41,923 nt of DNA from a virus (lineage: Duplodnaviria; Heunggongvirae; Uroviricota; Caudoviricetes), in the IMG/VR virus record IMGVR_UViG_2630968543_000002. One strand, 5' to 3'. Shown piece by piece: positions 5,332 through 8,265 of this stretch. The position numbers and the translations under genes were made by a program. Under the pieces are notes generated by a model. That model had not been told where the DNA came from. It was given only the letters and a program-made list of their open reading frames with translations, and searched no databases. The stretch's first letter is position 1. Every line of letters begins with the position of its first letter.

Positions 5332-5916
5332 TTATTGTTTATTTTTTTCGTTCTGGTTGATGACAAATTCAATGTAACTTTCGATCTTTGCTTTCTCGGT
5401 TTCGGGTAACAATGCGTAGCGCGAGCGGTCATAGTTGATGGTCGCAGGGTCGTGCGGGTGAATCAGTAATTCATAGCCGTGACGCCCGAATGCGGATGCA
5501 ACATTCTCCAGGGTGGAAATGGAAACGCTGACCTCATTGTTTAACAGGCGGCTGATTGTTACCTGGGCGACGCCGGATGCGCGGTGAAGTTTTCCCTGTG
5601 TTGAAAGGTCGCGGCTTTCGCTCATCCAGCGTTCCAGGTTGTGAGCCGCCAGCTGACCAATGTCGCTTGGGCCGACAGGCTGAAAACCTTCCTGAGAAAG
5701 CGAGCGATCGATATCAAGCCAGTTACGGGGTTTATTGGCGGCAGCTTCAATTTTTCGCGCAACCTGGTCGCCGATAACCTTCTTGCCAAGAGCCCAGCGG
5801 TTTACCAGATTTGCCTGAGTTCCAAGTTTTTCTGCCATCCGCGTCTGAACACCATTGAATTCACGGTCGATCAAGTCGTTGAGATTTTGCCTGCGGACGT
5901 CCTGGATACTTTTCAT
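5332..5916 (-). CDS. Prophage repressor with two tandem HTH domains (CI analogue); no S24 peptidase domain evident
   Basis: 194-aa ORF with two HTH-like segments (QTRMAEKLGTQANLVNRWALGKK and GVAQVTISRLLNNEVSVSISTLENVA); divergent from the Cro-like gene across an operator-rich spacer. Confidence 0.75.
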   Translation of the reverse strand: MKSIQDVRRQNLNDLIDREFNGVQTRMAEKLGTQANLVNRWALGKKVIGDQVARKIEAAANKPRNWLDIDRSLSQEGFQPVGPSDIGQLAAHNLERWMSESRDLSTQGKLHRASGVAQVTISRLLNNEVSVSISTLENVASAFGRHGYELLIHPHDPATINYDRSRYALLPETEKAKIESYIEFVINQNEKNKQ

Positions 5917-5971: not shown

Positions 5972-6034
5972 TTACCCAACAGGTAAATGCACCTCATAGG
6001 TAACTATCCTTGATTTTTGTTACCTTATGGGTGA
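5972..6034. promoter_or_regulatory. Right operator region (OR-like) between repressor and cro: one perfect site (5972..5986) and two degenerate sites (5989..6003 GCACC-N5-GGTAA; 6020..6034 TTACC-N5-GGTGA)
   Basis: Direct reading; the third site lies between a TTGATT -35 (6011..6016) and a GAATAT -10 (6034..6039) of the putative rightward promoter. Confidence 0.65.
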
Positions 6035-6070
6035 ATATTTATTATCTGAAATAAATATCAGGCAATAGCT

Positions 6071-6301
6071 ATGAGCGATAACGGACATTTCGATTTCAAA
6101 AAGCACTGGCTTGCACTTACTCCGGATGAGCGTGAAGCCTTCGCACAGGAAGCCGGAACGACGAGTCACTATATCCAGACTCACTTAACAGGTAAGCGCA
6201 AAATGCCAGGTAAGGTATTGATGAATGGGCTTTTTAAAGCCTGTAAAACAAGACAATGGCTGCGCTCAAAAGCAGAACTGGCATACTTCTTCTACTCATG
6301 A
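6071..6301 (+). CDS. Cro-like small DNA-binding protein
   Basis: 76-aa ORF divergent from the repressor, followed by a terminator; putative HTH segment EAFAQEAGTTSHYIQTHLTGKRKMP. Confidence 0.65.
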   Translation: MSDNGHFDFKKHWLALTPDEREAFAQEAGTTSHYIQTHLTGKRKMPGKVLMNGLFKACKTRQWLRSKAELAYFFYS

Positions 6302-6323
6302 TATCCATCCACAACCCTCTGTA

Positions 6324-6348
6324 GACCGCCATCCGGCGGTCTTTTCAT
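6324..6348 (+). terminator. Rho-independent terminator after cro (tR1-like)
   Basis: GACCGCC-ATCC-GGCGGTC hairpin followed by TTTTCAT. Confidence 0.6.
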
Positions 6349-6356
6349 ATCTATTC

Positions 6357-6371
6357 GTACCTCAAAGGTAA
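6357..6371. promoter_or_regulatory. Operator-like site GTACC-TCAAA-GGTAA (one mismatch) just downstream of the cro terminator
   Basis: Direct reading. Confidence 0.4.
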
Positions 6372-6451
6372 TAAAAAACCAAATCTGGTTGATCTTTTTT
6401 TTGTGTCAGCACAAAATGACCGTAATCCCAATACTAATAACAGGGCTTACC

Positions 6452-6652
6452 ATGGAAATCATTACACGTATTGATGCCGCAAAGCGCGGACTTAAACGCT
6501 ACTACACCGGAAAACCATGTAAGCACGGACATGACAGTGAACGCTGGGTTTACAACGGACACTGTGTTGAGTGCACTATGGAATCAAACCGTCGCATCAG
6601 GGCAGAGATTAAGCAGATCATGATTAATTCCTCCCCACAACATTCAAGCTGA
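6452..6652 (+). CDS. Hypothetical Cys/His-rich protein (CKHGHD...GHCVEC, possible zinc ribbon); sits where lambda carries cII; start uncertain (ORF opens at 6389)
   Basis: ORF 6389..6652; internal ATG at 6452 gives a 66-aa product. Confidence 0.45.
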   Translation: MEIITRIDAAKRGLKRYYTGKPCKHGHDSERWVYNGHCVECTMESNRRIRAEIKQIMINSSPQHSS

Positions 6653-6667
6653 TAGCGGAGATTAATC

Positions 6668-7483
6668 ATGAGCAGACATGCAACAGATTGGGCCTGGGAG
6701 ACAGATCCAGGTAGCTCGTCATTAAAGCTCATACTGCTCTCGATGGCTGACAGAGCCGATGAATATAACCTCTGCTACCCCAGCATAGAACGCCTCGTTA
6801 AAGACACTTGCCTGAATAAAAAAACCGTGCAGGCCGGGCTTATATCGCTCATGAAGATGGGGCTTATTTCAGATACCGGAGAGAGAAAGGGTGCGACGAA
6901 AAGAGTGCGGGTTTTCTCTCTTAATATAACCAAAAACGGGAACATTAAAGGCAACCGGGAAGGGGGTAATGAACCCGAAAACGGTAATGTTACCGAAAAC
7001 GGGAATATACCCAAAAACGGGATGTTGAATGATCCCAAAAACGGGATGTTGAATGATCCCAAAAACGGGATCCAGAACCAGTCATATAACCAGTCATTTA
7101 ACCAAGAGAGGGAGAGCAGGACAAAAAGCGGGGATTCTGTGCCTCATGACCCCGGCGCAAACAACGCCGTGATGAATAACTTTGTTCCTCCTGGTGGGCC
7201 AGGGCAATTAGGCAAATTTGTCATGCATGAACAATGGCAGCCATCAGATGACTTTCTTCGGAAAAGCTCATTGCAGGGGATCTACCTGGACAGCCTGCCA
7301 ACGGCACAGGAGCTTGCAGAGTTCAGAATTTACTGGATGGCTGAGGGTAAGGCATACCATCAGGCACAGTGGGAGCAGAAGCTGGCAAGGCGGCTGCAGA
7401 TTAGCAGACAGAAGCAATCAACATTACCTGATAACAACGTTCCGCACTGGAACAGCCCTGAAGCGTGGGAGGATTTCTTGTGA
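6668..7483 (+). CDS. Replication initiator (lambda O analogue) with DnaT-like C-terminal domain; the gene contains the putative origin iterons
   Basis: 271-aa ORF; N-terminal winged-helix-like region (LKLILLSMADRADEYNLCYPSIERLVKDT), central NG-rich repeats encoded by the iterons, C-terminal FRIYWMAEGKAYHQAQWEQKLARRLQ; GGAG Shine-Dalgarno. Confidence 0.75.
   Translation: MSRHATDWAWETDPGSSSLKLILLSMADRADEYNLCYPSIERLVKDTCLNKKTVQAGLISLMKMGLISDTGERKGATKRVRVFSLNITKNGNIKGNREGGNEPENGNVTENGNIPKNGMLNDPKNGMLNDPKNGIQNQSYNQSFNQERESRTKSGDSVPHDPGANNAVMNNFVPPGGPGQLGKFVMHEQWQPSDDFLRKSSLQGIYLDSLPTAQELAEFRIYWMAEGKAYHQAQWEQKLARRLQISRQKQSTLPDNNVPHWNSPEAWEDFL
6929..7072. repeat. Origin-like iteron array: six copies of CC(A/G)AAAACGG(G/T)A, the last three as 24-bp tandem repeats, followed by AACCAGTCAT direct repeats
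   Basis: Direct reading (copies at about 6930, 6975, 6993, 7011, 7035, 7059). Confidence 0.7.
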
Positions 7484-8265
7484 ACAACGTTTTTACCGCG
7501 ATACAAAACCGTGACGGAGAAGCCCTTTCTCGCATGTCAGGTTATGAGCATCAGTACGTCAACAATGACAATGTGGTGAACATGTCAGCAGAGAGGCTTG
7601 TTGATGCCCTTTTCAAACAGCTGAAACAACTGTTTCCGGCGGCAGTAGTAACCAACCTGAAGACGCCAGAGCAGGAAGTTGCTGCAAAACAGCAGTGGAT
7701 TGCTGCGTTTGCCGAAGGGGGGATCCGAACCCGTGAACAGGTTTCTGCTGGTATGCGCCACGCCCGCGCCAGTGAATCTCCGTTCTGGCCGTCGCCAGGG
7801 CAATTCATCAAGTGGTGTAAAGACAGCAAGATGGTTCTTGGCGTCACCATTGACGATGTGATGGCGGAGTTTCACCGGTACAGCAAGGAAAAAAGTTTAT
7901 ATCCTGGTGGTCCCGAAAGATTCCCGTGGCGACATCCGGTTATGTACTGGGTCGTATGTGATACCCGCCGTGCAATGTATCAGCGCCAGCTTAGCGAGAT
8001 TGAGGTTGAGAAACACGCGCGCAGGCTGCTCGATGATTGGGCGAAAAAGGTAGCTTCCGGACAGCAGATACCCGATCCGGTGATCAGCATACAGGCAAAG
8101 CCAGAACCCATGAGTACGCCTCCGGACACAGGGAGAGACGTTTACCATCCACCAGGGCGAAGTTTCGGGTGCATGCCTAACGCCGCCACCCTTGGGGGAA
8201 TAACACCGGCGCAGTGGCTGATGGAGGAATACAGGCGGGGAAAGGCGGCAGGATTTATCAAGTAA
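7480..8265 (+). CDS. Lambda P-like replication protein (helicase loader)
   Basis: Matches lambda P as recalled (REQVSAGMRHARASESPFWPSPGQFIKWC versus lambda MEQVNAGMRVARRQNRPFLPSPGQFVAWC); GTG start at 7480 with GGGAGG 7 nt upstream, GTGA overlap with the O-like stop. Confidence 0.85.
   Translation: MNNVFTAIQNRDGEALSRMSGYEHQYVNNDNVVNMSAERLVDALFKQLKQLFPAAVVTNLKTPEQEVAAKQQWIAAFAEGGIRTREQVSAGMRHARASESPFWPSPGQFIKWCKDSKMVLGVTIDDVMAEFHRYSKEKSLYPGGPERFPWRHPVMYWVVCDTRRAMYQRQLSEIEVEKHARRLLDDWAKKVASGQQIPDPVISIQAKPEPMSTPPDTGRDVYHPPGRSFGCMPNAATLGGITPAQWLMEEYRRGKAAGFIK

Follow-up and report, generated by a model that had tools for sequence, protein, structure and literature searches.

The stretch of DNA analysed here, 41.9 kb in all, is referred to below as the window. 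It is a Uetakevirus genome or prophage of the phiV10 type in which an immunity region, a rightward early operon and two replication genes lie in the classic lambdoid immunity-replication arrangement (Table 1). The first of the two replication genes encodes an initiator and the second a helicase loader. The GTG that corresponds to the loader start annotated in phiV10 overlaps the stop codon of the initiator, and the loader product matches Pfam Phage_lambda_P (PF06992; 1.5e-56) as well as PHROG 109 'P-like helicase loader' (4.7e-92). Between the terminator-like hairpin and the initiator gene we also noted a 66-aa ORF (6452-6652, + strand) with a CxxH...CxxC motif that matches PHROG 1081 (unknown function; 7.7e-43) and is weakly similar to endonuclease VII-type families. 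This ORF is kept in phiV10 and, according to a note in the phiV10 record, in epsilon15.

The initiator matches PHROG 1032 'replication initiation protein' (1.3e-108 over aa 1-269), and the gene is 96-99% identical to its homologues in phiV10, EC.W1-9, phiv142-3 and PAS61. Its N-domain contains Pfam HTH_36 (PF13730; aa 18-67, 1.8e-10, 40.9 bits against a cut-off of 25) and its C-domain the Pfam DnaT C-terminal domain (PF17948; aa 184-252, 1.2e-15). An AlphaFold2 model run on a 69-sequence alignment gave pLDDT values of ~88-98 for the N-domain (aa 1 to ~90), of ~80-90 for the C-domain (aa 181 to ~250) and of 43-48 for most of aa ~90-180, with segments 94-107, 115-130, 132-157 and 164-178 falling below 50. 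All the repeats described below are encoded in this low-pLDDT stretch between the two confident domains, and the linker that holds them is thus predicted to be disordered. The C-domain matched DnaT structures from E. coli and Salmonella in the PDB (9zbt, 6aep and 4ou6, E about 1e-20, best 6.6e-21), and its Foldseek comparison with 4ou6 gave a TM-score of 0.89 and an rmsd of 0.9; for the N-domain, the weak fold matches included the RepA_N structures 4pql and 5kbj.

The C-domain (aa 180-265) shares ~50% identity with the part of DnaT, a primosomal protein of the host, that binds ssDNA, which suggests a fairly recent exchange between host dnaT and phage initiators. It is because of this resemblance that genome pipelines apply the names 'DnaT-like' or 'primosomal protein I' to the initiator as a whole. 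The phiV10 gene (NC_007804, PhiV10p43), which is 96.7% identical and carries the same six iterons, was also named from DnaT similarity, and the phiV10 record annotates terminators but neither the origin nor the repeats. The initial annotation of the window had called the gene O-like, a description that fits its function and its layout but not the protein itself. Pfam Phage_rep_O (PF04492), which matches lambda O at 5.7e-36, did not match the initiator, where HTH_36 and DnaT were the only domains found, hhalign comparison of an N-domain alignment with lambda O gave a probability of 5%, and BLASTP detected no significant similarity. As the N-domain cannot be shown to be homologous to lambda O, we do not place the protein in the O family.

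Table 1. Coordinates of the genes, repeats and putative signals in the immunity and replication region of the window.
Feature	Position	Strand	Remarks
cI-like repressor, two HTH motifs	5332..5916	-	immunity region upstream of the replication genes
Promoter-like site	6017-6045		before the rightward early operon
Cro- or regulator-like gene, first in the rightward early operon	6071..6301	+	small early gene
Terminator-like hairpin	6323-6342		terminator annotated in phiV10
Initiator gene, 271 aa	6668..7483	+	HTH_36 winged-helix N-domain, disordered linker (predicted), DnaT-like C-domain
Iteron 1 core, CCAAAAACGGGA	6930..6941	+	least conserved copy; CCAAAAAAGGGA in some alleles
Tandem array	6965-7020		period 18, 3.1 copies, 78% matches (Tandem Repeats Finder)
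Iteron 2 core, CCGAAAACGGTA	6975..6986	+	pattern match
Iteron 3 core, CCGAAAACGGGA	6993..7004	+	pattern match
Tandem array	7010-7071		period 24, 2.6 copies, 100% matches (Tandem Repeats Finder)
Iteron 4 core, CCAAAAACGGGA	7011..7022	+	opens the 24-bp tandem array
Iteron 5 with arms, GATCCCAAAAACGGGATG	7031..7048	+	core 7035-7046; 5-bp arms ATCCC/GGGAT around AAAAAC
Iteron 6 with arms, GATCCCAAAAACGGGATC	7055..7072	+	core 7059-7070; perfect 6-bp inverted arms
Tandem array, AACCAGTCATAT	7076-7104		period 12, 2.4 copies, 94% matches (Tandem Repeats Finder)
Second repeat set, AACCAGTCATAT, AACCAGTCATTT, AACCAAGAG	7076..7108	+	12-bp period
Putative degenerate iteron-like copy, ATTTAACCAAGAGAGGGA	7096..7113	+	78% to iteron 1 and flank; weak match
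Lambda-P-like helicase loader	7465..8265	+	longest ORF from 7465; GTG 7480 is the annotated start in phiV10

Repeats in the linker codons of the initiator gene

The linker codons of the initiator gene contain six copies of CC(A/G)AAAACGG(G/T)A between 6930 and 7070, all on the + strand. Searching both strands of the window with the pattern CCRAAAACGGKA and up to one mismatch allowed returned exactly 6 matches, each with 0 mismatches and all at the cores listed in Table 1, and at this tolerance no further copy was found in the rest of the 41.9 kb. A looser, family-wide pattern (CCVAAWWYKGG) likewise had no match in the window beyond the iteron region. Dinucleotide-preserving shuffles contained a mean of 0.61 copies and 0 of 100 reached six. 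The start-to-start spacing of the iterons (45, 18, 18, 24 and 24 bp) is out of helical phase, and with their flanks iterons 5 and 6 display dyad symmetry (GATCCC-AAAAAC-GGGATG and GATCCC-AAAAAC-GGGATC, respectively). The repeats encode the NG-rich peptide ITKNGNIKGNREGGNEPENGNVTENGNIPKNGMLNDPKNGMLNDPKNGIQNQSYNQSFNQ (ORF 6668-7483, + strand), and inside the six cores of the window the third-codon positions are fixed, NCC, NAA and AAC being found in 6/6 copies. The initial annotation had described six copies at 6929-7072, with the last three as 24-bp tandem repeats, in an initiator gene where they encode an NG-rich linker. Our pattern search agrees with this count and its coordinates are accurate for the iterons, Tandem Repeats Finder recovered the 24-bp array with 100% matches, and the location within the gene and the nature of the linker were both confirmed in the ORF.

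Two minor features accompany the array. The spacer between iterons 1 and 2 (6942-6974, ACATTAAAGGCAACCGGGAAGGGGGTAATGAAC) is loosely iteron-like with an extra base (ACCG-GGAAGG-GGGT) and may be a decayed iteron copy. Iterons 5 and 6 together hold three GATC (Dam) sites in a span of 42 bp (7031-7072), compared with one per ~264 bp on average over the window; the enrichment is not clear, although a link to methylation or SeqA is conceivable, and GATC is present in the iterons of Edwardsiella phage GF-2 and absent from those of Vibrio phage H20.

The iterons are followed by direct repeats, as the initial annotation had also reported: exact copies of AACCAGTCAT begin at 7076 and 7088 (7076-7099) and at no other position in the window. 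The number of AACCAGTCATAT units differs from phiV10, which has three against two in the window. The AACC repeat segment has a G+C content of ~36% over 33 bp, and the 30-mer at 7080-7109 is, together with one other, the least stable in the gene and belongs to the least stable ~4-5% of the window. No lambda-like 40-bp A+T-rich run is present beside the iterons, and the lowest G+C near the replication genes (0.28-0.33) is found in the intergenic stretch 6340-6420, ~500 bp upstream. The second repeats of the window sit where lambda has its A+T-rich region, and in every relative that we compared the last iteron is followed by 3-4 copies of GAACC (GAACAGT in Bcep176) with a period of 11-13 bp. The frames in which these copies are read differ, giving QNQS, EPVI and EPS in Vibrio H20, RTVI and EPS in the Pseudomonas phages and NQS-NQS-NQ in the window. 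Judging from position, periodicity and conservation, the AACC/AACCAGTCAT repeats are a likely candidate for an unwinding element.

Conservation and variation of the array

We compared eleven phages in which the N-domain of the initiator is 31-58% identical to that of the window, namely Edwardsiella GF-2 and EPP-1, Vibrio H20, Acinetobacter AB1, AP22 and Ab105-2phi, E. coli PPompW, Burkholderia Bcep176, Moraxella Mcat8 and Pseudomonas PseuP_224 and phi2. A repeat array lies directly 3' of the N-domain codons in 11/11. Down to ~44% N-domain identity its core has the form CC-(A/T-rich 6-7 nt)-GG (CCCAAAATTGGGA, CCGAAAACGGTAC, GTACCGAAATTGGTAC, CCCAAATTTGGG), in which the CC...GG arms stay constant and the centre may be AAAAAC, AAAATT, AAATTT or AATATT, so that the encoded peptide contains N, I or F. 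The most distant N-domains are followed in the same place by an array of other sequence (AAAGGGGGTACAATTTTG in Mcat8, CACCCCCGCAGGAG in the Pseudomonas phages), and the repeat type appears to change with the N-domain, only at large distance.

Across these relatives every one of the three frames is used to read the word (as PKNG, TQKRD or PKTG), and PKFG is also among its peptide readings. In EPP-1 the word CCAAAAACGGG occurs in frames 2, 1, 0 and 2 of one gene (TQKRE, PKNG, PNFG and PQKRD), GF-2 uses two frames (one copy read as TQKRD, three as PKIG) and Bcep176 yet another. A HMMER search with the 86-aa N-domain as query found 3,653 cluster representatives, 527 of them below 1e-10. We surveyed the frames in 118 full-length representatives (clusters at <=50% identity), taking as linker the 105 residues after the N-domain: the three frame-readings occurred 2.53, 0.80 and 0.26 times per 100 aa in the linker and 0.014, 0.057 and 0 times elsewhere. 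The word is present in 110 of the 118 representatives and in at least two frames in 74; the claim of the initial annotation that the iteron sequence is specific to this phage must therefore be abandoned, the same core being found in phages of Edwardsiella, Vibrio, Acinetobacter and Burkholderia and in other E. coli prophages. One DNA word that is read in three frames as unrelated peptides argues for selection on the DNA and not on the peptide: a DNA-binding site would be expected to produce such a pattern, whereas an explanation at the level of the peptide would not be able to yield it. In a Klebsiella homologue (NZ_CP130688.1, 2074-3093), where the word is again found in at least two frames (HTQKRE, YQKRD, IPENG, DPKNG), we observed one iteron-like site that is reversed, GATCCCGTTTTTTCC, among direct ones.

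C-domains and partner genes are swapped among close relatives of the N-domain, with combinations that include a DnaT-like domain and a P-like gene, a DnaB-type helicase or the C-terminus of lambda O. GF-2 is a natural chimera of the last kind, with a window-type N-domain, iterons and GAACC repeats and then, from aa 137, a C-terminus that is 62% identical to that of lambda O, the right-hand inverted repeat (right arm) of ori-lambda being part of it. Its 24-bp unit GGGATTTTGAATGATCCCAAAATTGGGA is nearly identical to GGGATGTTGAATGATCCCAAAAACGGGA of the window. The N-domain, the iterons and the GAACC repeats thus behave as one exchangeable module, and in GF-2 this module fills the place of the N-domain, iterons and A+T-rich region of lambda.

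Variation among close relatives was followed in 80 IMG/VR contigs, all near-identical phiV10-like sequences with N-domains 99-100% identical, which inform on polymorphism and not on diversity. They carry 4-9 iterons, the arrangement of the window being found in 42/80, and the indels in the array always comprise whole 18- or 24-bp units. E. coli alleles from NCBI reach up to 311 aa with 12 copies of [PT][KE]NG, which is how the iteron reads as peptide, and the copy number over all alleles is 4-12. Among 44 collinear haplotypes, variable sites amount to 3/72 in the iteron cores and 2/41 in the AACC repeats against 26/169 in the remaining linker (Fisher p=0.003), and single-base changes concentrate in the 6942-6974 spacer, the polymorphism hot spot of the gene. 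The low diversity of the tandem copies could partly stem from concerted evolution. The gene is present in 423 of 5,426 complete E. coli genomes (~8%).

A candidate replication origin and its competing explanations

The origin of lambda lies within O, where O dimers bind inverted repeats, bend the DNA and open an adjacent A+T-rich region (PMC5043065). The window is similar to lambda in that the initiator gene itself holds the putative origin, placed between the codons of a DNA-binding N-domain and a partner-binding C-domain, with a candidate unwinding region to the right of the sites, a P-type DnaB loader (PF06992) next and a cI/cro-type switch upstream. The sites share a design of TCCC arm, A-tract and GGGA arm (ATCCCTC-AAAAC-GAGGGA in lambda, GATCCC-AAAAAC-GGGATC in the window), although the gap from TCCC to GGGA is 3 bp longer in lambda. 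The O-binding iterons annotated in lambda (NC_001416: ATCCCTCAAAACGAGGGA, ATCCCCTAAAACGAGGGA, ATCCCTCAAATTGGGGGA and ATCCCTCAAAACAGGGGG) number 4, whereas the window has 6 (4-12 in alleles), and lambda has a 40-bp A+T-rich run where the window has AACCAGTCAT repeats with a 12-bp period and moderate A+T. The initiators differ as well, that of the window combining HTH_36 with a DnaT-like C-domain in place of Phage_rep_O and the lambda O C-domain.

Other known systems offer partial parallels. Plasmid-type iterons (Rep_3, pi, RepE) are direct repeats of ~17-22 bp that are monomer-bound and helix-phased (PMC5043065); the window sites, dyad-symmetric and spaced by 18 or 24 bp, do not belong to this type. 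In RepA_N of pSK41 the Rep boxes are situated in the middle of rep and are bound by a winged-helix N-domain, the central linker encoded by the ori is dispensable and the C-domain contacts host replication proteins (PMC5703833). The window has a comparable layout of winged-helix N-domain, putative binding repeats within the protein's own gene, predicted linker and C-domain, but there is no detectable sequence relationship, and RepA_N is found on Gram-positive plasmids, has another repeat sequence and is partnered by the DnaG primase, not by a P-type loader. A further parallel, in gene architecture, is the DopC/DopE pair of Cellvibrionales and Oceanospirillales, a domesticated lambdoid O/P pair in which HTH_36 and a DnaT C-terminal domain are followed by a lambda-P-like protein (PMC5509034). 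This two-gene architecture is identical to that of the window, yet dopC is reported without iteron-like sequences and the chromosomal origin lies elsewhere (PMC5509034), whereas the phage gene keeps the full array. The reported loss of iterons from dopC fits with repeats that serve an origin and not the protein.

These comparisons lead us to consider it probable that the segment ~6926-7113, within the linker codons of the initiator, is the vegetative replication origin of this phiV10-like temperate phage. The view of the initial annotation that these are origin iterons mirroring those of lambda is supported by the layout, by the P-like neighbour and by all the comparative evidence, and needs revision for the protein, which we place outside the lambda O family. 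By analogy with lambda O at its ori and with RepA_N of pSK41, dimers of the N-domain would occupy the iterons, wrapping or bending the A-tract-rich array, and the adjoining low-stability AACC-repeat region would open. The C-domain could hold the single-stranded DNA and/or the loader, the P-like protein would deliver host DnaB and transcription from the early rightward promoter would read through the origin. The linker peptide would be a disordered tether whose sequence is of little importance, leaving the array free to grow and shrink by whole units.

One could argue that the repeats are a feature of the protein only, a flexible NG-rich linker generated by slippage with no cis-acting role of the DNA. 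The predicted disorder of the stretch agrees with this, as does a copy number that varies from 4 to 12 like that of many low-complexity linkers. Such an explanation is nevertheless very improbable, as a single DNA word yields unrelated peptides in its three frames (PKNG, TQKRD, PKTG, PNFG, PKFG), third-codon positions are fixed in the six cores of the window, the cores are less polymorphic than the remaining linker and dopC, with an identical domain layout, is reported to be devoid of iteron-like repeats (PMC5509034). Alternatively the repeats could be bound by the initiator for purposes of control (autoregulation, titration, pairing or exclusion of related phages) with initiation taking place elsewhere, for example at 6340-6420. 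It is there, and not beside the iterons, that the lowest-G+C DNA near the replication genes is found, and plasmid iteron arrays act in copy-number control and incompatibility (PMC5043065). We judge this unlikely: all iteron copies lie within 6930-7113 and any origin placed elsewhere would thus be one without initiator sites, the conserved unit of the family consists of the iterons and the adjacent GAACC repeats and not of the upstream intergenic sequence, and the unit in GF-2 sits exactly where lambda has its iterons and A+T-rich region.

It is scarcely conceivable that the repeats are instead sites for another factor (a host protein, a repressor or a packaging or recombination enzyme) or antisense terminator hairpins. 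Adjacent iteron arms do form minus-strand patterns of a hairpin and a T-run (7061-7042 and 7037-7018), and iterons 5 and 6 contain the three Dam sites. Yet such hairpins arise automatically where dyad-symmetric sites adjoin A-tracts, and the 4 terminator-like matches found in the region, with 2.7 expected, are not above shuffles. The repeats moreover co-vary with the DNA-binding domain of the initiator from Vibrio to Burkholderia, which argues against a host-specific factor. No Rfam match was found in the region. A minus-strand ORF (6775-7062) was considered as a gene and rejected, as it has no family match.

That an origin can lie within an initiator gene is a principle familiar from the work on lambda in 1979-81. 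From its sequence the array of the window appears to be an unannotated case of this long-known kind of element, with a repeat sequence that is common to a very large phage family. In the literature we found no published description of a phiV10-type iteron origin and no published experiment on the origin of a phiV10-type phage or on an HTH_36 initiator of such type. Our analysis provides a concrete, testable origin for phiV10-type prophages, in which the gene is currently annotated as 'DnaT-like ssDNA-binding protein' with no origin marked. Phages of the phiV10 type serve as O157 reporter and typing phages. The array in addition illustrates clearly how constraint at the level of the DNA can shape a coding sequence, with one word in three frames, and it may provide a simple origin-finding rule for a large family of phage initiators. 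One may speculate further, although we think it rather doubtful, that CC-(A/T)6-7-GG together with GAACC at a period of ~12 bp is a pan-family origin signature of lambda-iteron-like design for thousands of HTH_36 initiators in phages of many Proteobacteria. If this were correct, phage origins would be readable from the initiator protein as strings such as PKNG, TQKRD, PKTG and QNQSLEPVIEP, the specificity of origin recognition would be carried only by the flanking bases and unrelated prophages in one cell might recognise each other's origins, leading to cross-activation or interference.

Circular and chimeric records with related modules

Related modules are found in two circular records. pZ1323HEC0067-2 (NZ_CP148379.1), a circular E. 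coli record of 8,461 bp, contains a dicA/cro-type switch, ydaT, an initiator, a P-like gene, hokD, rem and several further genes. The initiator is of the PPompW type (HTH_36-DnaT with iterons) and 98% identical to that of PPompW, and the gene list, taken from PLSDB gene tables that are incomplete, holds no replication genes besides the initiator and the P-like gene. The record has the appearance of a natural replicon of the lambda-dv type, the alternative being a piece of prophage that was excised or misassembled. The second record, pHL15EC-2, is circular with 41,027 bp and from its size and a 6.3-kb region appears to be a complete phiV10-like genome. Both are circumstantial leads toward autonomous replication and not proof of it. 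The complete-looking genome of 41,027 bp is deposited as a circular plasmid in two duck E. coli assemblies (NZ_CP079771.1 and NZ_CP079768.1), which suggests that the phage was present there as extrachromosomal circles when sequenced.

The linear records of the O157 typing phages 9 and 10 (KP869107.1 and KP869108.1) end inside the initiator gene near the iterons, where the tandem repeats probably broke the assemblies. Finally, a phiV10-like immunity-replication segment is found near one end of each of the records of phage BP9, a 138-kb Vequintavirus (PP488543.1, 132437-138228), and of PH444 (115 kb, PP350014.1); these segments are probably the result of chimeric assembly with a resident prophage.
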